This document shows, in pieces, positions 23,303 to 45,646 of a DNA stretch of 64,000 nucleotides. The position numbers were made by a program, and so were the translations under genes. The DNA is taken from assembly GCF_058153355.1 (NCBI RefSeq), contig NZ_CM177019.1. One strand, written 5' to 3'. Numbering within the stretch: position 1 is the stretch's first letter; each line of letters opens with the position of its first letter. Below the pieces are notes generated by a model, which searched no databases, was not told the DNA's origin, and worked only from the letters and a program-made list of their open reading frames with translations.

Positions 23303-25075
23303 ATGCGTACAGAATATTGTGGACAGCTCCGTTTGTCCCACGTGGGGCAGCAGGTGACTCTGTGTGGTTGGGTCAACCGTCGTCGTGATCTTGGTAGCCT
23401 GATCTTCATCGATATGCGCGACCGCGAAGGTATCGTGCAGGTATTTTTCGATCCGGATCGTGCGGACGCGTTAAAGCTGGCCTCTGAACTGCGTAATGAG
23501 TTCTGCATTCAGGTCACGGGCACCGTACGTGCGCGTGACGAAAAAAATATCAACCGCGATATGGCGACCGGCGAAATCGAAGTGCTGGCCTCCTCGCTGA
23601 CCATCATCAACCGCGCAGACGTTCTGCCGCTTGACTCTAACCACGTCAACACCGAAGAAGCGCGTCTGAAATACCGCTACCTCGACCTGCGTCGCCCGGA
23701 AATGGCTCAGCGCCTGAAAACCCGCGCTAAAATCACCAGCCTGGTGCGCCGTTTTATGGATGACCACGGCTTCCTCGACATCGAAACTCCGATGCTGACC
23801 AAAGCCACGCCGGAAGGTGCGCGTGACTACCTGGTGCCTTCTCGTGTGCACAAAGGTAAATTCTACGCACTGCCGCAATCCCCGCAGTTGTTCAAACAGC
23901 TGCTGATGATGTCCGGTTTTGACCGCTACTATCAGATAGTCAAATGCTTCCGTGACGAAGACCTGCGCGCTGATCGTCAGCCTGAATTTACTCAGATCGA
24001 TGTGGAAACTTCTTTCATGACCGCGCCGCAAGTGCGTGAAGTGATGGAAGCGCTGGTGCGTCATCTGTGGCTGGAAGTGAAGGGCGTGGATCTGGGCGAT
24101 TTCCCGGTAATGACCTTTGCAGAAGCAGAACGCCGTTATGGTTCTGATAAACCGGATCTGCGTAACCCGATGGAACTGACTGACGTTGCCGATCTGCTGA
24201 AATCCGTTGAGTTCGCGGTATTCGCAGGTCCGGCGAACGATCCGAAAGGCCGCGTTGCTGCTCTGCGTGTTCCGGGTGGCGCATCGCTGACCCGTAAGCA
24301 GATCGACGAATACGGTAACTTCGTTAAAATCTACGGCGCGAAAGGTCTGGCGTACATCAAAGTTAACGAACGTGCGAAAGGTCTGGAAGGTATCAACAGC
24401 CCGGTAGCGAAGTTCCTCAACGCTGAAATCATCGAAGCCATCCTGGATCGTACTGCCGCGCAAGATGGCGATATGATTTTCTTCGGTGCTGATAACAAGA
24501 AAATTGTTGCCGACGCGATGGGCGCATTGCGTCTGAAAGTGGGTAAAGACCTTGGTCTGACCGACGAAAGCAAATGGGCACCGCTGTGGGTTATCGACTT
24601 CCCGATGTTTGAAGATGACGGTGAAGGCGGCCTGACGGCAATGCACCATCCGTTCACCTCACCGAAAGATATGACGGCGGCAGAGTTAAAAGCTGCACCG
24701 GAAAATGCGGTGGCGAACGCTTACGATATGGTCATCAATGGTTACGAAGTGGGCGGTGGTTCTGTGCGTATCCATAATGGGGATATGCAGCAGACGGTGT
24801 TTGGCATTCTGGGGATCAACGAAGAGGAACAGCGCGAGAAATTCGGCTTCCTGCTCGACGCCCTGAAATACGGTACTCCGCCGCACGCAGGTCTGGCATT
24901 CGGTCTTGACCGTCTGACCATGCTGCTGACCGGTACCGACAACATCCGTGACGTTATCGCCTTCCCGAAAACCACGGCGGCAGCGTGTCTGATGACCGAA
25001 GCGCCAAGCTTTGCTAACCCGACTGCCCTGTCCGAGCTGAGCATTCAGGTTGTGAAGAAGGCAGAGAATAATTGA
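23303..25075 (+). CDS. aspS: aspartate--tRNA ligase
   Basis: 590-aa product matching recalled E. coli AspS. Confidence 0.95.
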
Positions 25076-25076
25076 T

Positions 25077-25520
25077 ATGACTTATAAGCGTCCCGTTTCT
25101 ATTCTGGTGGTTATTTATGCGCAAGATACGAAACGGGTGCTGATGTTACAGCGGCGTGATGATCCCGATTTCTGGCAGTCGGTAACCGGCAGTGTGGAAG
25201 AGGGGGAAACCGCGCCGCAAGCCGCCATGCGCGAAGTAAAGGAAGAGGTCACCATTGATGTTGTCGCTGAACAACTGACCTTAATTGACTGTCAGCGCAC
25301 GGTGGAGTTTGAAATTTTTTCACATTTACGTCATCGCTATGCGCCGGGCGTAACGCGTAATACGGAATCTTGGTTCTGTCTTGCACTCCCGCACGAGCGC
25401 CAGATCGTTTTCACTGAACATCTGGCCTACAAGTGGCTTGATGCGCATGCTGCGGCGGCGCTCACAAAGTCATGGAGCAACCGGCAGGCGATTGAACAGT
25501 TTGTAATTAACGCTGCCTGA
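25077..25520 (+). CDS. nudB: dihydroneopterin triphosphate diphosphatase (Nudix)
   Basis: Nudix box present; position after aspS. Confidence 0.85.
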
Positions 25521-25548
25521 ACAGGCAGGGCTACCTGGAGATATTTTT

Positions 25549-26289
25549 ATGGCAGGTCATAGTAAATGGGCCAACACCAGACATCGTAAAGCTGCGCAGG
25601 ATGCTAAGCGCGGTAAAATCTTCACTAAAATCATTCGTGAACTGGTAACCGCGGCTAAGTTGGGCGGTGGCGATCCGGATGCTAACCCGCGTCTGCGAGC
25701 AGCCATTGATAAAGCACTGTCTAACAACATGACCCGTGACACCCTGAACCGCGCAATTGCCCGTGGTGTGGGTGGTGATGATGATGCAAACATGGAAACC
25801 ATCATCTACGAAGGTTACGGTCCTGGCGGCACGGCAATCATGATTGAATGTCTGTCTGATAACCGCAACCGTACCGTTGCTGAAGTGCGTCACGCATTCA
25901 GCAAATGTGGCGGTAACCTCGGTACTGATGGTTCCGTAGCCTATCTGTTCAGCAAAAAAGGCGTGATCTCCTTCGAGAAAGGCGATGAAGACACCATCAT
26001 GGAAGCAGCTCTGGAAGCTGGTGCTGAAGATGTTGTGACCTATGATGATGGCGCGATTGACGTCTACACTGCATGGGAGGAAATGGGCAAAGTACGCGAC
26101 GCTCTGGAAGCGGCAGGTCTGAAAGCAGACAGCGCGGAAGTTTCCATGATCCCGTCCACCAAAGCTGATATGGATGCAGAAACCGCACCGAAACTGATGC
26201 GTCTGATCGATATGCTGGAAGATTGCGACGACGTGCAGGAAGTCTACCATAACGGTGAAATCTCTGATGAGGTTGCAGCGACTCTCTGA
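25549..26289 (+). CDS. yebC: YebC/PmpR-family transcriptional regulator
   Basis: [10 protein letters not shown]-terminus typical of YebC family; 246 aa. Confidence 0.9.
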
Positions 26290-26323
26290 TGAGGCCTGCT
26301 AAACAGCAAAACGGAGACGCGTG

Positions 26324-26845
26324 ATGGCTATTATTCTCGGCATTGACCCGGGTTCGCGCGTGACCGGCTATGGCGTCATCCGCCAGGTGGGCAGGCAGCT
26401 GTCCTACCTGGGTAGCGGATGTATACGCACCAAAGTGGATGATTTACCGTCTCGTCTTAAGCTCATCTATGCGGGCGTGACGGAAATCATCACCCAGTTC
26501 CAGCCTGATTATTTCGCCATTGAACAAGTCTTTATGGCTAAAAATGCCGACTCGGCCCTGAAGCTGGGGCAGGCGCGTGGCGTGGCGATTGTGGCGGCGG
26601 TGAATCAGGAATTACCGGTATTTGAATACGCGGCACGTCAGGTAAAGCAAACGGTGGTAGGTATTGGTAGTGCCGAAAAAAGCCAGGTGCAGCATATGGT
26701 TCGCACCTTGCTGAAACTCCCCGCTAATCCTCAGGCGGATGCCGCTGATGCGCTGGCAATTGCCATCACCCACTGCCACGTTAGTCAGAATGCGATGCAG
26801 ATGAGCGAATCGCGGCTGAACCTGGCGAGAGGGCGACTGCGTTAA
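26324..26845 (+). CDS. ruvC: Holliday junction resolvase RuvC
   Basis: [18 protein letters not shown]-terminus; 173 aa. Confidence 0.9.
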
Positions 26846-26846
26846 G

Positions 26847-27449
26847 TTATACCGCCTCGGTCAATTCAGGCTGAGGCGTTTCTACTCCCTCCGCATGAAT
26901 CAACACCAAACCCGGATGATGCCACAAACTGGCTGGCGTGACGGTTTTACGCTCCCACGGAATCGAACCTAAAAACCAGAATTTCCAGAAAGTGAGTTTT
27001 GCATTCGGATTGCTATTTAACAGTTCTCCAAACGTCTCAATTTCACCCACCGGGATACATAGCGCCTCTTTATAAATATCAAAAACGAATTTTGAACAGA
27101 ACTGGCGGGAAGATTCGTATTTAAAACCGGTGTGGTAGAACTTATGCAACCGGGCAGGGACCTTTTCGACAAGAGCAAGTTTCTGCTCTTCGGTTAAACC
27201 TCCTGCCAGGCGGCGAACACCGTAGCGTTGATCGGTCGACCGTTCAATAAATCGTGACAAAGTTGTGATTGTGGAGAGCGGAACTCGACTCTCCGCAACC
27301 AGGTAATCATCACCGTCATGTCCGATGATTATCCCCACATGGTTGCTCCAGCATTTCGAGGCAGCAGAGATTTGCCCAAACAGGCGAGCACCGATGCAGG
27401 TAAAAACAATATCACCGGTTTCATATTTAGCTGGGTAATTTATTTTCAC
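26847..27449 (-). CDS. yebB: YebB-family protein
   Basis: 200-aa ORF convergent with ruvC at the expected position. Confidence 0.7.
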
Positions 27450-27542
27450 TATATCAATCCATTATTTATATATAAAACAGCATCTATCTTTCGTGATGGT
27501 AAAGCATTAGCATTGTATTGTAATCATGACAAGGAATGTTTT

Positions 27543-28256
27543 ATGCGGTTATTTGTTAATGTGATAATTATAGTTTCGATCAGTCAATGCGTGAATGTAT
27601 TTGCTCAAGATAATGTCATTCGCTATCCCTGGCGATATGGACGTATTTCTTTAAATGAGAATAATGAGTTTGTGCCTCAAATTATTCATATGCGTGATGA
27701 TATCTACGGCGTGGGTGAAGCTGGTGCAAGCCTTAACGATGCGAGAATGGCGCAAAGTGGTGTCACCGTGAGGCTTAGCGTTATACAGCAGGGGCAGGTG
27801 GTGAATGCTTTACTGGATTTCTACAATAGCAATAATCAACCTGCTTATATCTTTGAAGGTGGTTTGATGCCTTGCAATAAAGCCTTTGACATCACAACAA
27901 GCAACATTGTCCTTGATGGGATGTGTGGAATTTATGATGGGGTCGATGGCTGGCAAGTTATTCCTGCGGGTGATCATTATAAAGAATCATTTTCACTCAC
28001 TCAGGCTTTTGAATTTCTGCCGGGAAAACATCATTATAAAATTAATGCCGGAAGTTTTATCATCAGAGTGGGGGATGATATTTTTGCAAGAGAGGACGCC
28101 GAAAGCATTCTTTTTGATTTGATTAACTGGCGATATGGCTATGTGCTAAAAAGTTATGAAAGGGTGTCGAAGGGGGATTTGATGGCAGGATATTATGCTC
28201 TGTATGAATACTCAGGCGCTGACATAATTGATGAGTATGATATTTACTCAAACTAG
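27543..28256 (+). CDS. hypothetical secreted protein, 237 aa, low-GC
   Basis: AAGGA then ATG at 27543; N-terminal signal-peptide-like segment; AT-rich codon usage unlike neighbours. Confidence 0.5.
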   Translation: MRLFVNVIIIVSISQCVNVFAQDNVIRYPWRYGRISLNENNEFVPQIIHMRDDIYGVGEAGASLNDARMAQSGVTVRLSVIQQGQVVNALLDFYNSNNQPAYIFEGGLMPCNKAFDITTSNIVLDGMCGIYDGVDGWQVIPAGDHYKESFSLTQAFEFLPGKHHYKINAGSFIIRVGDDIFAREDAESILFDLINWRYGYVLKSYERVSKGDLMAGYYALYEYSGADIIDEYDIYSN

Positions 28257-28404
28257 GTCTCGATTGATCTTAATGGTGACGAGTTAGCGCATACGGAGTC
28301 ATATCAGTGGCGTATTGATAGTGGAATGATCCCGCAAAAATTCAGCGTTCAGGGACTCGCTGAATGATTAGTCCTCTACCTGCTTGCCAGATACAGAGGC
28401 GCGG

Positions 28405-28989
28405 ATGAATTTATCAAGCGTATTCAATCAGCTTTTAATCTCATTTGCTCTTGCCGGGACGTTGATATTAAGCATCTATCTCATGGAAGCTCACTACCCA
28501 CGTTTCAGGAAGCCAATTGCGCTCTTTTACTTCTTTTTAGCGATTTATACCAGTTATGCTGCCGTTCTGGAGTATGAGTACCACCGCAATAGCTTGACTA
28601 CGCTCGCAAAAGTTTCTTCGGTTCGTTATACCAGTAATTTTGAGCGTAGCGCCTCGCACTCCTGCAATTTACTGCGGGGAGGAAGGATTGATTGCACGGG
28701 GCTGTATGCCTATGACCTGACCTGGCAGATTGACGGTAAGACCTGGAATTTGCATGTTGAGGACAAGCGTATAAAACCAGGATTCACCATGTGCGTGAAG
28801 GTTGTAAAAGATCGCCCCGCCATCGGGAAACCCTGTGAAAACGTGTTTTTCAATATCAGCCCTTTGCCGATTCTGATAGCTATATGGGCAATAAGCGCAT
28901 TTATATTTGCGGTCTTACTCCTTCACCAACTAAAAAAATGCCGCGAATGGAAGCACGCCAGCAAGGAACGTGGAAAAATTGGCCATTAG
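28405..28989 (+). CDS. hypothetical membrane protein, 194 aa, low-GC
   Basis: GAGG then ATG at 28405; two N-terminal and one C-terminal hydrophobic segments flanking a Cys-containing central domain. Confidence 0.5.
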   Translation: MNLSSVFNQLLISFALAGTLILSIYLMEAHYPRFRKPIALFYFFLAIYTSYAAVLEYEYHRNSLTTLAKVSSVRYTSNFERSASHSCNLLRGGRIDCTGLYAYDLTWQIDGKTWNLHVEDKRIKPGFTMCVKVVKDRPAIGKPCENVFFNISPLPILIAIWAISAFIFAVLLLHQLKKCREWKHASKERGKIGH

Positions 28990-29089
28990 AAGTCAAAGAA
29001 AGAGTGCGATGTAAGGTGATTCATAGAAAATTTCAGATACCGTGAGCCAAAGGATTATCAGTTCTGAAATGATTTAATATCATCCCTCG

Positions 29090-29105
29090 CTGGATATCTA
29101 TCCAG
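29090..29105 (+). promoter_or_regulatory. LexA box of the ruvAB operon
   Basis: CTGGATATCTATCCAG palindrome about 50 bp upstream of ruvA. Confidence 0.7.
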
Positions 29106-29156
29106 CATTTTTTTATCATACAGCATTATCTTTGATTCATTACGCAGGAGCGTCAT

Positions 29157-29768
29157 GTGATAGGCAGACTCAGAGGCATCATCATTGAAAAACAACCCCC
29201 GCTGGTATTAATTGAAGTGGGCGGCGTAGGCTATGAAGTGCATATGCCGATGACCTGTTTTTATGAACTCCCTGAAGCGGGTCAGGAAGCGATCGTTTTC
29301 ACCCACTTTGTGGTGCGTGAAGACGCGCAACTGCTGTACGGTTTTAACAATAAACAAGAGCGCACGTTGTTCAAAGAGTTGATCAAAACCAACGGCGTTG
29401 GGCCTAAACTGGCATTGGCAATCCTCTCCGGAATGTCAGCGCAGCAGTTCGTTAATGCCGTTGAGCGTGAAGAAGTCGGGGTTCTGGTGAAACTGCCGGG
29501 TATTGGCAAAAAAACCGCCGAACGCTTGATTGTCGAAATGAAAGACCGATTTAAAGGTTTACATGGCGATCTCTTTACGCCAGCTGCCGACCTGGTACTC
29601 ACGTCACCTGCGAGCCCGGCGACCGACGATGCTGAACAGGAAGCGGTTGCCGCGCTGGTGGCGCTGGGCTATAAACCACAAGAAGCAAGCCGCATGGTGA
29701 GCAAAATCGCTCGCCCTGACGCCAGCAGTGAAACATTAATTCGCGAAGCCCTGCGCGCCGCGTTATGA
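29157..29768 (+). CDS. ruvA: Holliday junction helicase subunit RuvA
   Basis: GTG start; [15 protein letters not shown]; 203 aa. Confidence 0.95.
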
Positions 29769-29773
29769 GGTAA

Positions 29774-30787
<1,014 letters not shown>

Positions 30788-30825
30788 GTTGAATAAGGCA
30801 TTCAAGCCGCTTCCGACATTGGCGA

Positions 30826-32085
<1,260 letters not shown>

Positions 32086-32158
32086 CATGCCTGCAATCTG
32101 GGAAACCGGGGTAGAAAAAAACTTGCAGGCCATAACAGTATCTACCAAAAGTAGCGAA

Positions 32159-32196
32159 CCGTAGGTCGGATAAGGCGCTCGCGCCGCATCCGACAA
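32159..32196. repeat. REP element (right half of the IS insertion target)
   Basis: GTAGGTCGGATAAGGCGCTCGCGCCGCATCCGACA. Confidence 0.6.
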
Positions 32197-32213
32197 ATGT
32201 GTTCAGCGACAGA

Positions 32214-32999
32214 TTAGCTGGCTTGCTTTTTCATCATACTGATAATAAATAACAGTGCCGCACATAGCACTACCGACGGACCCGCCGGCGTATCGTAAAA
32301 TGCGGAAAAGGTTAAACCGCCAGTTACTGCCACCATTCCCACCAAAACAGCGACACCGGCCATCTGTTCCGGCGTGCGGGCAAAGCGACGCGCTGTAGCT
32401 GCAGGAATAATCAGCAGCGAAGTAATAATCAACGCGCCGACAAATTTCATCGCTACACCAATCGTCAATGCTGTCACCAGCATCAACAACAATTTCACGC
32501 GCTGTAATTTCACACCATCAACAAACGCCAGATCCGGGCTAATCGTCATTGACAGCAAATTGCGCCATTGCCAGAACAGAATCGCCACCACGATGACCAC
32601 GCCAATCGCAATAGAGATGAGATCTTCTGGCGTCACTGCCAGCAAATCACCGAACAGGTAAGCCATCAAATCAACACGAATGTTAGACATCAGACTAACG
32701 ACCACCAGGCCCAGCGACAGGGCACTGTGCGCCATAATCCCTAATAACGTGTCGATCGCCAGCTGTGGGCGCTTCTCCAGCCATACCAGACCGCCCGCCA
32801 GCAGCAGCGTAACCGCAATCACCGCATAGAATGGATTAACGTCCAGCAACAAACCAAACGCGACGCCAAGTAACGAGGCATGAGCCAGTGTATCACCGAA
32901 ATAAGACATACGACGCCAGACCACAAACGAACCCAGCGGACCCGCGGCACAGGCGAGCATGATCCCGGCTAACCAACCAGGAAATAATAATTCAATCAT
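32214..32999 (-). CDS. znuB: zinc ABC transporter permease
   Basis: 261-aa polytopic membrane protein. Confidence 0.9.
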
Positions 33000-33751
33000 G
33001 AGCGATCATTTCCCCGACGCAAAACAATTCGTCCCTGTAAATCGTGACGATGATTATGATGATGGCGATAGATACCCAGTTGTTCAGCACCACGAGGACC
33101 AAACATAGAAATAAACTCCGGATGCAGGGAAACAACTTCCGGTGTGCCGGAACAACAAATGTGGTGATTCAGGCAAAGCACTTCATCGGTTTTTGCCATT
33201 ACCAGATGCAGATCGTGAGAGACCATTAAAACGCCACAATCCAGTTCGCGACGCAACTGGTCAATAAGGTCATATAACGCCACCTGACCATTCACATCCA
33301 CGCCCTGAGTGGGTTCATCCAGCACTAATAATTGCGGTCGATTTAACAATGCTCGCGCTAACAATACACGCTGTGTTTCGCCACCCGAGAGCTTTTGCAT
33401 CGGTGCGTTAATCAGATGCCCGGCCTGGACACGTTTCAGTGCAGGCAAAATATCTTCTTTATGTGTGCCAGGGCGTAAGCGTAAAAATCGATTTACGGTC
33501 AGTGGCAATGTGGTGTCGAGATACAGCTTCTGCGGTACGTAGCCGATGCGCAGTTTTCCGTTGCGCTTGATAACCCCTTCATCGGGTGTTACCAGTCCGA
33601 GCACTACCCGTACCAGTGTCGACTTACCTGCGCCATTTGGCCCAAGTAAAGTTAAAATTTTTCCAGGTTTAAGTTCCAGCGACACATCAGAGAGGACGCG
33701 GCGTTGGCCGAAAGAAACCGAGACATTTTCCAGGGAAACCAGACTTGTCAT
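32996..33751 (-). CDS. znuC: zinc ABC transporter ATPase
   Basis: Walker [10 protein letters not shown] and LSGGE signature. Confidence 0.9.
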
Positions 33752-33776
33752 GTTAATTTTAGTCTTGCAGTAGTCA

Positions 33777-33796
33777 TGAAATGTTATAATATCACA
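33777..33796. promoter_or_regulatory. Zur box in the divergent znuA / znuCB promoter region
   Basis: TGAAATGTTATAATATCACA palindrome between divergent genes. Confidence 0.7.
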
Positions 33797-33829
33797 CTTC
33801 TCATATTCATTACGATGATTGGTCGCATT

Positions 33830-34762
33830 ATGTTACATAAAAAAACGCTTCTTTTCGCAGCATTATCCGCCGCTCTCTGGGGGGGGGCAACACAGGCCGC
33901 AGATGCTGCCGTTGTCGCTTCGCTTAAACCCGTTGGGTTCATCGCTTCTGCCATTGCTGATGGGGTAACAGAAACGGAGGTTTTACTACCTGACGGCGCT
34001 TCAGAACATGATTATTCACTGCGTCCATCAGATGTAAAACGCTTACAGAACGCGGACTTAGTCGTTTGGGTTGGCCCGGAGATGGAAGCGTTCATGCAAA
34101 AACCGGTAAGTAAATTACCTGAAGCGAAACAGGTAACGATTGCGCAGCTAGAGAATGTGAAACCGCTGCTGATGAAAAGTATTCACGGCGATGATGATGA
34201 TCACGACCACGCGGAAAAAAGTGACGAAGATCACCATCACGGCGATTTCAACATGCATCTTTGGCTTTCCCCAGAGATAGCGCGGGCTACAGCGGTTGCA
34301 ATCCATGGAAAATTAGTGGAATTTATGCCGCAAAGTCGAGCCAAACTTGACGCCAACCTGAAGGATTTTGAGGCACAATTAGCCTCAACCGAAAAGCAGG
34401 TTGGTAACGAGCTCGCGCCGCTCAAGGGGAAAGGTTATTTCGTTTTTCACGATGCTTACGGCTATTTCGAAAAACAGTTCGGACTGACACCGCTTGGTCA
34501 TTTTACCGTTAACCCTGAGATTCAACCTGGCGCGCAGAGTTTACATGAAATAAGAACACAGTTGGTTGAGCAAAAAGCAACCTGCGTTTTTGCTGAGCCA
34601 CAGTTCAGGCCAGCGGTCGTTGAGAGCGTCGCTCGAGGGACATCCGTTCGTATGGGAACGTTGGATCCCCTGGGGACGAATATCAAACTGGGTAAAACAA
34701 GCTATTCAGAATTCCTGAATCAATTAGCCAACCAGTATGCGAGCTGCCTGAAAGGAGATTAA
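33830..34762 (+). CDS. znuA: zinc ABC transporter periplasmic binding protein
   Basis: Signal peptide then His/Asp-rich loop ([22 protein letters not shown]); ATG at 33830. Confidence 0.9.
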
Positions 34763-34777
34763 TGAGGAAGTGATTAC

Positions 34778-36100
34778 GTGCAACAGATAGCCCGCTCTGT
34801 CGCCCTGGCGTTTAATAATTTACCGCGACCACACCGCGTTATGTTGGGGTCGCTCACCGTTCTTACTCTGGCCGTCGCTGTCTGGCGGCCCTATGTTTAT
34901 CACCGCGATGCCACGCCAATTGTCAAAACCATTGAGCTGGAACAGAACGAAATTCGTTCGCTCTTACCTGAAGCCAGTGAGCCGATTGATCAAGCTGCAC
35001 AAGAAGATGAAGCCATTCCCCAGGATGAACTGGATGACAAAATCGCCGGTGAAGCGGGCGTGCATGAATATGTTGTTTCCACTGGCGATACGCTAAGCAG
35101 CATTCTCAATCAGTATGGTATTGATATGGGTGATATCACCCAACTGGCTGCTGCCGACAAAGAATTGCGTAACCTGAAAATCGGTCAACAACTTTCCTGG
35201 ACATTAACCGCGGACGGCGAATTGCAGCGCCTTACCTGGGAAGTATCTCGTCGGGAAACCCGAACCTATGACCGCACTGCCGCTAACGGTTTTAAAATGA
35301 CCAGCGAAATGCAGCAAGGGGAATGGGTTAACAATCTGCTGAAAGGTACCGTCGGAGGAAGTTTTGTTGCCAGCGCCAGAAACGCCGGTTTAAGCAGCGC
35401 CGAAGTGAGCGCTGTGATTAAAGCTATGCAGTGGCAAATGGACTTCCGCAAACTGAAAAAAGGCGATGAATTTGCGGTGTTAATGTCACGAGAAATGCTT
35501 GATGGCAAACGTGAGCAAAGTCAGCTGCTGGGCGTACGTTTGCGTTCAGAAGGTAAAGATTATTACGCAATCCGCGCTGAAGATGGCAAATTCTACGACC
35601 GTAACGGCACTGGTCTGGCGAAAGGATTCTTGCGATTCCCGACGGCGAAACAATTCCGTATCTCTTCTAACTTTAACCCGCGTCGTACTAACCCGGTGAC
35701 TGGTCGCGTTGCACCGCACAGAGGTGTTGATTTCGCCATGCCACAGGGTACGCCAGTACTTTCAGTGGGTGACGGTGAAGTGGTGGTTGCCAAACGCAGT
35801 GGCGCAGCAGGTTATTATGTGGCTATTCGTCATGGTCGTAGCTACACCACGCGTTATATGCACTTGCGTAAGATTCTGGTGAAACCAGGACAGAAGGTGA
35901 AACGTGGCGACCGTATCGCGCTTTCCGGTAATACCGGACGTTCAACCGGGCCGCATCTGCACTATGAAGTATGGATAAACCAGCAGGCCGTAAACCCGCT
36001 GACGGCAAAACTGCCGCGTACCGAAGGGCTGACCGGCTCCGATCGTCGCGAATTCCTGGCGCAGGCCAAAGAGATTGTGCCGCAGCTACGGTTTGATTAA
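34778..36100 (+). CDS. mepM: murein DD-endopeptidase MepM (LysM and M23 peptidase domains)
   Basis: GTG start; M23 motifs HRGVDFA and GPHLHYE. Confidence 0.9.
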
Positions 36101-45630: not shown

Positions 45631-45646
45631 CTGTATAAAATCACAG
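45631..45646 (+). promoter_or_regulatory. LexA box upstream of yebG
   Basis: CTGTATAAAATCACAG, 20 bp upstream of the yebG start. Confidence 0.7.

Follow-up and report, generated by a model that had tools for sequence, protein, structure and literature searches.

A low-GC islet between yebB and ruvA of Escherichia carries a truncated gene related to predicted type VI secretion immunity genes

Overview

The sequence analysed here (hereafter, the window) is a 64,000-nucleotide stretch of contig NZ_CM177019.1 from NCBI RefSeq assembly GCF_058153355.1. In the window, the interval between the core genes yebB and ruvA is occupied by an islet of low GC content containing two open reading frames (ORFs) on the plus strand, which are referred to as genes A and B. 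Gene A is probably an orphan homologue of predicted periplasmic immunity proteins for VgrG-linked, M35-like type VI secretion system (T6SS) effectors, as judged from profile homology and gene order, and the copy carried by the window is a truncated allele. Judging from the distribution of genes A and B in other genomes, the islet is composed of two independent accessory genes in a variable yebB-ruvA slot rather than of one module with two genes.

Orphan T6SS immunity genes and the effector modules of Escherichia coli vgrG islands are established kinds of loci. No account of the A family, its link to M35-like effectors, or its resemblance to the peptidase AsaP1 was found in the literature searched, nor was a named or tested immunity partner for M35-like effectors, and members of the A family were annotated solely as 'hypothetical protein' wherever we looked.

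Relatives of gene A encoded behind VgrG-linked effectors

Gene A had no match in Pfam, NCBIfam (E <= 1), PADLOC, or PHROGs, its comparison with PDB sequences yielded noise alone with nothing significant, and a tblastn search of phage records was likewise negative. Gene B is also without a match in Pfam, NCBIfam, PADLOC, and PHROGs, and a preliminary description of the window, made from the sequence alone, was therefore right in recognizing no family for either product. When the plasmid records were searched with gene A by tblastn, one distant relative was obtained, from E. coli KE48. This strain contains a vgrG island next to yddH/nhoA, in which genes for PAAR, VgrG, and a 200-amino-acid (aa) 'peptidase M35' (WP_000107952.1; HEFSH motif; Pfam Aspzincin_M35, E = 3e-5) are followed by the A relative (designated X) and a second paralogue (X'). 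In hhalign comparisons, the A profile was aligned with X at 97% probability (E = 5e-11, 228 columns) and with X' at 92% probability (E = 8e-7). In the uropathogenic E. coli strain MS7163, the same island comprises PAAR, VgrG, and M35 genes, the last specifying a different effector of 253 aa, WP_000342574.1, and then X' alone. The effectors of the two strains share 32% identity and the proteins encoded downstream of them share 28% identity, indicating that effector and downstream gene diverge together, and X' of KE48 may be regarded as a trailing orphan. Of 5,426 E. coli genomes, 666 (~12%) contain this vgrG island at least in part.

When 1.84 billion representative proteins were searched exhaustively with the A profile, only 39 relatives were identified, and the gene contexts of four of these (E = 1e-16 to 1e-10) were examined. 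In all four cases, the gene directly upstream of the A relative specifies a protein with a HELSH or HEMSH motif and with homology to the effectors of E. coli (blastp E = 1e-11 to 1e-30), and the coding region for a VgrG C-terminus (E = 1e-14 to 1e-75) is located upstream of that gene; the ORF downstream of one of the four starts with what we take to be a TssF-like sequence. The immunity position behind a VgrG-linked M35-like effector is thus held by every family member examined outside the yebB-ruvA interval (eight genes at six loci). A local hmmsearch with the A profile matched all seven of the context-linked proteins tested, and N-terminal hydrophobic leaders are present in all A relatives examined. 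Because these relatives lie directly downstream of VgrG-linked HExxH effectors of the M35/aspzincin type, the A family most likely represents the cognate immunity proteins of these effectors. On a metagenomic contig (L022, positions 351-3127; comparison loci are labelled L001, L002, and so on), two pairs of M35-like effector and A-family genes are present in tandem after VgrG, with the second effector shortened to 160 aa, an arrangement that can be read as the stacking of effector-immunity cassettes.

No effector, VgrG, or PAAR gene is located beside gene A, the neighbours of which are yebB, gene B, and ruvA, and no T6SS gene was found among the window ORFs examined; gene A is called an orphan for this reason. 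A T6SS cluster in the window itself was considered and rejected, as the large upstream ORFs are lambdoid prophage tail genes and an IpaH-type ligase gene.

Predicted fold of the gene A product

A model of the gene A product was generated with AlphaFold2 from an 11-sequence alignment. It contains a beta-sandwich core (residues 62-105, 136-180, and 230-245) with predicted local distance difference test (pLDDT) values of 70-88, and two cysteines, C111 and C128, are invariant throughout the family. When this model was compared with the PDB by Foldseek, entries of AsaP1 (2X3A/2X3B/2X3C) took places one to four (E = 4.6e-5 to 8e-4), and the fifth match was the intracellular proteinase inhibitor BsuPI of Bacillus subtilis (3ISY). 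AsaP1 is an M35 aspzincin that was crystallized as a pro-enzyme. Its sole beta-sandwich is reportedly the inhibitory propeptide, the catalytic domain being mainly helical (Bogdanovic et al. 2016, FEBS Lett). The match of the effector itself to AsaP1 covers residues 272-316, i.e. the catalytic HExxH region. In its modelled fold, the gene A product therefore resembles a beta-sandwich of the BsuPI/AsaP1-propeptide kind, and neither the curated family models nor the solved chains gave a sequence match. It further differs from the AsaP1 propeptide in being a separate secreted protein rather than a covalently attached prodomain, and from both proteins in having additional regions, at residues 22-61 and 182-227, for which the prediction is poor.

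The truncated gene A allele of the window

Gene A is preceded by a ribosome-binding site (AGGA) located 7 nt 5' of the ATG codon, and its product contains a single hydrophobic segment, the N-terminal leader, with predicted cleavage between VFA and QD (Table 1). The intact gene found in other strains encodes 274 aa and would end at position 28367 of the window; intact alleles are those of loci L001, L008, L009, L015, L017, and L018. The L001 allele comes from E. coli 2017-02-2CC and spans positions 6244-7068 of that locus. The secreted protein of 237 aa reported in the preliminary description accordingly has a signal peptide, and its length is that of a truncated allele of a 274-aa protein. Since the last 37 residues, including the core strand predicted at residues 238-244, have been lost, the window copy is probably inactive.

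Among alleles down to 71% identity, the ratio of nonsynonymous to synonymous substitution rates (dN/dS) of gene A is 0.12-0.35, which corresponds to purifying selection and, together with the existence of intact alleles, indicates that gene A is a real gene. Shortened alleles are also common elsewhere in public data: one of 212 aa occurs in 79 contigs (strain M863 among them), others encode 145 and 257 aa, and the gene is frameshifted in two Korean strains (as in L010). The recurrent truncation fits a dispensable, conditionally useful gene.

Distribution of genes A and B

In a word-indexed search of 5.8 billion proteins, six clusters for A and 16 for B were obtained, all from Enterobacteriaceae. 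Of 5,426 complete E. coli genomes, 19 carry the islet, which is chromosomal and at the same site in each of them, and a contig scan detected gene A in 2 of 100,044 species representatives. The accessory status of the locus is thereby confirmed; the two genes are neither conserved in all relatives nor assigned a housekeeping function.

The arrangement yebB-A-B-ruvA is also found in Escherichia fergusonii (L015-L017) and in a metagenomic locus (L003), the A protein of which is 49% identical and which has an additional PstS-like gene upstream. In Pseudocitrobacter (L004 and L019), the arrangement is yebB-A-ruvA and B is absent, and in Escherichia sp. E1V33 (L018), A is followed by a gene for an unrelated, cysteine-rich protein of 228 aa with multiple transmembrane (TM) segments, located in the slot of B. 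Conversely, B occurs alone in Superficieibacter sp. (L011 and L012), where both yebB and A are absent, and after yebB and a gap in Superficieibacter electus (L013), where A is absent. No remnants of the missing gene were found in the loci lacking A or B, nor in the yobI spacer of K-12. Gene A keeps to the yebB side and gene B to the ruvA side of this polymorphic slot. Co-occurrence of A and B is therefore not obligate, and, because each is found without the other, they are not a pair; the suggestion in the preliminary description that the membrane protein B is the partner of the secreted protein A was not upheld. More broadly, the interval from ruvC through yebB to ruvA is, in Enterobacteriaceae, a hot spot at which small accessory genes are found (L003, 3753-5246; L008, 1-850; L013, 2803-3582; L018, 6854-7540); their products include a PstS-like protein of 497 aa whose N-terminal part has TM helices, a lipase of the GDSL type, and the 228-aa protein that replaces B.

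Gene B encodes a predicted inner-membrane protein with hydrophobic segments at residues 3-29, 37-56, and 146-177, with which the helices of its AlphaFold model coincide, in agreement with the three TM segments proposed earlier for this 194-aa protein. Its layout comprises TM1-TM2, then a domain that is rich in beta structure and contains four invariant cysteines, followed by TM3 and a C-terminal tail of basic character. Based on the basic residues in the first loop and the C-terminal tail and on the positive-inside rule, the middle domain of ~90 residues is predicted to be periplasmic and the tail cytoplasmic. The model of this protein is poor (pLDDT 61). A weak match to DUF4131 (the ComEC N-terminal TM/OB domain) was obtained for five of six gene B members, but the best E value was 4.9e-4, below the gathering score, and the match lies mostly over the TM helices. 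A resemblance to DUF3592 was suspected by eye, and was rejected because hmmscan gave no DUF3592 match. No match to gene B was found in plasmid records. The dN/dS of gene B among close alleles is 0.5-0.7, which is more relaxed than that of gene A, and the E. coli protein does not have the C-terminal cytoplasmic extension found in the Superficieibacter protein.

Proposed role of gene A and alternative explanations

If gene A is an orphan homologue of T6SS immunity genes, A-family proteins would be exported to the periplasm via the Sec leader and would bind there M35-like T6SS effectors that are either incoming or self-delivered. The sandwich would block the active site of the effector in a propeptide-like manner; direct binding to the active site is the likely inhibitory mechanism in light of the modelled fold. 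An intact, effector-less copy at yebB-ruvA would protect its carrier against M35-armed competitors, and the copy in the window would have lost this activity through the nonsense codon. It is conceivable, although we consider it rather doubtful, that the A family is a new T6SS immunity class that descended from, or mimics, the propeptide of the M35 zymogen, that effector and antidote form a split zymogen, the catalytic domain of which is fired while the prodomain is kept as the antidote, and that the intact orphans protect E. fergusonii and rare E. coli against the M35-armed vgrG islands found, in whole or in part, in ~12% of E. coli genomes.

Several points weigh against the assignment of gene A to orphan immunity genes. 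The immunity role of the family itself is deduced solely from gene order, and the yebB-ruvA protein is only 21-28% identical to the T6SS-linked members, so that it may match another effector or have another role. Gene A always lies beside yebB, and this may reflect a link to that gene instead of mere inheritance of the locus. The model of the gene A product is weak overall (mean pLDDT 55; predicted template modelling score 0.56), with confidence in the sandwich core alone, and the part of AsaP1 that it matches is presumably the propeptide, a reading based on the mainly helical nature of the catalytic domain. In an alternative explanation, the gene A product is a periplasmic beta-sandwich with a role outside the T6SS, e.g. 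in inhibiting a protease, whether endogenous or of a host, or as a partner of the neighbouring YebB amidase, and its relatives happen to have been recruited as immunity genes. The low identity to the T6SS-linked members, the separate clade that A forms and that keeps to the yebB side of the interval in at least three genera, the purifying selection acting on it at yebB-ruvA, and the absence of T6SS genes nearby all speak for such a role. However, yebB is universal in E. coli whereas A is present in 0.35% of genomes, and YebB, when its sequence was inspected by eye, had no signal peptide, which would place the two proteins in different compartments. The repeated truncations of A (to 212, 145, 257, and 237 aa, in addition to the frameshift in L010) fit a gene that is dispensable and conditionally useful, and precedents exist for immunity genes that lie as orphans at sites outside the T6SS (PMC7400221; bioRxiv 10.1101/471110). 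A non-T6SS role for gene A is therefore judged to be unlikely.

Two further explanations concern the islet as a whole. The preliminary description had raised, as speculation, the idea that A and B form a toxin/immunity or an envelope-stress pair, i.e. one module in which a secreted toxin or stress factor is combined with a membrane-bound immunity or sensor partner. The two genes are indeed adjacent and co-oriented, separated by 148 bp here and by 37 bp where A is intact; they occur together in E. coli, E. fergusonii, and L003; and both products are predicted to face the periplasm. Nevertheless, A is found without B in L004, L019, and L018, in the last of which the slot is taken by the unrelated membrane protein, and B without A in L011, L012, and L013, in no case with remnants of the missing gene. 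The relatives of A follow effectors with no B-like gene nearby, and gene A is without a toxin-like domain. A single module is thus very improbable: the immunity side of the earlier idea is retained through the relatives that follow VgrG-linked M35-like effectors, with A resembling an antidote rather than a toxin and with B removed as its partner, and nothing was found in support of an envelope-stress pair. In the other explanation, ancestral Escherichia genes that were lost from most E. coli persist in the islet as a decaying remnant, which has no present function and the location of which carries no special meaning. The nonsense codon in the window, the frameshift in the two Korean strains, the several short public alleles of A, the relaxed dN/dS of B and its lack of the C-terminal extension, and the retention of the same position in the sister species could all be accommodated by decay. 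On the other hand, most A alleles are intact and have low dN/dS values, the identity step within yebB and the contrasting identities of adjacent tracts to E. fergusonii (see below) point to recent exchange and not to simple vertical decay, and decay describes the state of the gene in the window rather than the role of the family. We regard this explanation as decidedly unlikely.

Orphan immunity genes influence which bacteria survive contact-dependent killing in the gut. If gene A belongs to them, an unannotated immunity family would be added for the M35-like class of T6SS effectors, and 'hypothetical proteins' of E. coli, E. fergusonii, and Pseudocitrobacter would gain a testable function; a simple origin, i.e. 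the reuse of a protease prodomain as an antidote, would also be suggested. Such genes may be able to spread by homologous recombination in core flanks without a mobile element. For the genome from which the window is derived, the practical weight is small because its copy is truncated.

Comparison with known systems

Orphan T6SS immunity genes have been described as acquired interbacterial defence clusters in Bacteroidales (bioRxiv 10.1101/471110), as a putative immunity islet in S. Typhi (PMC7400221), and as orphan immunity arrays in Vibrio cholerae (PMC8189183). Similarly to these genes, gene A is a homologue of effector-adjacent immunity candidates that lies away from effector and T6SS genes, and it is patchily distributed, apparently exchanged horizontally, and often decaying. 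It differs in being a single gene rather than an array, in its location in a core-gene spacer, in having been moved in all likelihood by recombination in the flanks rather than by a mobile element, and in having only the low identity given above to any effector-linked member.

The effector-immunity modules of E. coli VgrG islands include VT1/VTI1 and other VT modules (reviewed in PMC6730261) as well as the M35-peptidase locus of strain BCE049, known as 'module 5' (PMC7904677). The M35-like peptidase from this vgrG effector locus, which is linked here to the A-family effectors by its description, is toxic solely when sent to the periplasm (PMC7904677). Several features are shared with these modules: in the islands at yncG/yddH, which have the order PAAR-VgrG-effector-immunity, the place of the immunity gene is taken by the relatives of A; effectors of this type exert their toxicity in the periplasm; and signal peptides are present on the immunity candidates. 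The window copy differs in having no VgrG, PAAR, or effector gene nearby. A further parallel is provided by the C-terminal zinc metallopeptidase domain of Pseudomonas aeruginosa VgrG2b, which acts in the periplasm of the target cell and is neutralized by the periplasmic immunity protein PA0261 (PMC6899460). The combination of a T6SS metallopeptidase acting in the periplasm with a periplasmic antidote is what is predicted for the A family, the likeness being one of description, whereas the effector domain of VgrG2b forms part of a fusion with VgrG, and its metallopeptidase family is not that of the A-family effectors.

Boundaries, base composition, and origin of the islet

The low-GC islet of two ORFs noted in the preliminary description is real. 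It is 1.6 kb in length and has a GC content of 0.416, compared with 0.506 for the whole window, and in the non-prophage part (22-64 kb) a GC content as low as this is reached by just 0.9% of segments of equal size. The accompanying claim that both genes are more AT-rich than the flanking genes applies clearly to gene A (GC content, 0.40; GC content at third codon positions [GC3], 0.37) and only mildly to gene B (GC content, 0.45), whose GC3 of 0.52 is within the character of the flanking genes (0.50-0.62). The coordinates of the islet and its features are listed in Table 1.

Table 1. Features of the yebB-ruvA region in the window
Feature	Position	Strand	Remarks
yebB	26847-27449	-	Core flank, left
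yebB 5' part (YebB/Peptidase_C92)	27141..27449	-	Left end of the recombined tract; K-12 alignment
Islet proper	27450..29080	.	Replaces the K-12-type yebB-ruvA spacer
Gene A, truncated 237-aa allele	27543..28256	+	ORF; hhalign, contexts of relatives, fold search, dN/dS
Gene A Sec-type signal peptide MRLFVNVIIIVSISQCVNVFA	27543..27605	+	Predicted cleavage before QD; sole hydrophobic segment
Premature TAG, gene A codon 238 (CAG in intact alleles)	28254..28256	+	Allele comparison
Last 37 codons of intact gene A, untranslated in the window	28257..28367	+	Include the predicted core beta strand 238-244
Gene B, 194-aa predicted inner-membrane protein	28405..28989	+	Hydrophobicity, AlphaFold, relatives
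ruvA-proximal LexA box CTGGATATCTATCCAG	29090..29105	+	Just beyond the right edge of the islet
ruvA	29157-29768	+	Core flank, right

The K-12-type spacer is ~270 bp in length and holds the 21-codon yobI gene and a distal SOS box of ruvA. When yebB, which was assigned to YebB/Peptidase_C92 by both Pfam and NCBIfam, was aligned with its K-12 counterpart, the 3' part showed ~96% identity and the part from ~27141 to the start codon showed ~78% identity. This drop indicates a recombination breakpoint inside yebB, and the divergent tract thus begins within the gene and not at its start codon, a correction to the preliminary description. The right edge of the islet is at ~29080, directly before the ruvA-proximal LexA box. 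A repeat search revealed no repeats bounding the islet, no mobility genes are present among the ORFs between yebB and ruvA, and an Rfam scan of positions 26800-29400 gave no match; the features of a mobile genomic island (an integrase or transposase, flanking direct or inverted repeats, and a tRNA target) are thus not seen here.

The core genes of the window are 97.0-97.5% identical to those of nearly all E. coli. The aspS-ruvB tract (23405-30866) shows 96.9% identity to E. fergusonii and 92-95% identity to K-12, whereas the adjoining znuB-mepM tract (32146-35267) shows 83.8% identity to E. fergusonii. This contrast suggests a mosaic formed by inter-species recombination over ~7.5 kb, and the sequence comparisons indicate that the segment was probably exchanged between E. 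fergusonii-like and divergent E. coli lineages via homologous recombination. The islet would have reached this lineage through recombination in the core flanks, with the breakpoint in yebB and a donor pool that was presumably E. fergusonii-like, although donor and direction are suggested here only as the likeliest course. Beyond ruvB, an element of the IS110 family is inserted between ruvB and znuB (~30866-32142), the transposase gene of which (31056-32036) encodes the DEDD_Tnp_IS110 and Transposase_20 domains; this element is absent from K-12 and from other islet carriers (L001).

LexA boxes and neighbouring genes

The LexA box next to ruvA (Table 1) is present at positions -67 to -70 relative to that gene in each of the locus types examined (four genera). 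In comparison with positions 29000-29105 of the window, yobI and the distal SOS box of ruvA, CTGTGCCATTTTTCAG, found in the K-12-type locus L002 (2874-2973), are confined to the K-12-type spacer, and the loci of the A/B type in the four genera have the proximal box alone. The two spacer types may therefore not be alike in how LexA controls ruvAB. A LexA-like box, CTGTATGAATACTCAG, located inside the 3' end of gene A (28200-28215), 190 nt 5' of gene B, was considered as a possible site of SOS control of gene B and was dismissed as a chance occurrence, because it is not conserved in L009, L018, L019, and L004 and is kept solely among the closest gene A alleles.

Elsewhere in the window, palindromic boxes of the form CTGT-N8-ACAG were found, two of them 28 bp apart at 22088-22131 near the prophage/yecD junction and another at 45631-45646, and these are good candidates for LexA boxes. 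The looser pattern CTGT-N9-CAG occurs 18 times vs 6.2 expected occurrences, i.e. it is three-fold over-represented. The left part of the window contains the tail module of a lambdoid prophage (39-19292), with genes for gpZ, the tape measure protein, gpJ, Lom, and two tail fibres with an assembly protein. Next to yecD, an IpaH-type gene on the minus strand (19472-21223) encodes LRR_TTSS and NEL E3 ligase domains and represents type III effector cargo in a genome whose core is ~97% identical to that of typical E. coli.

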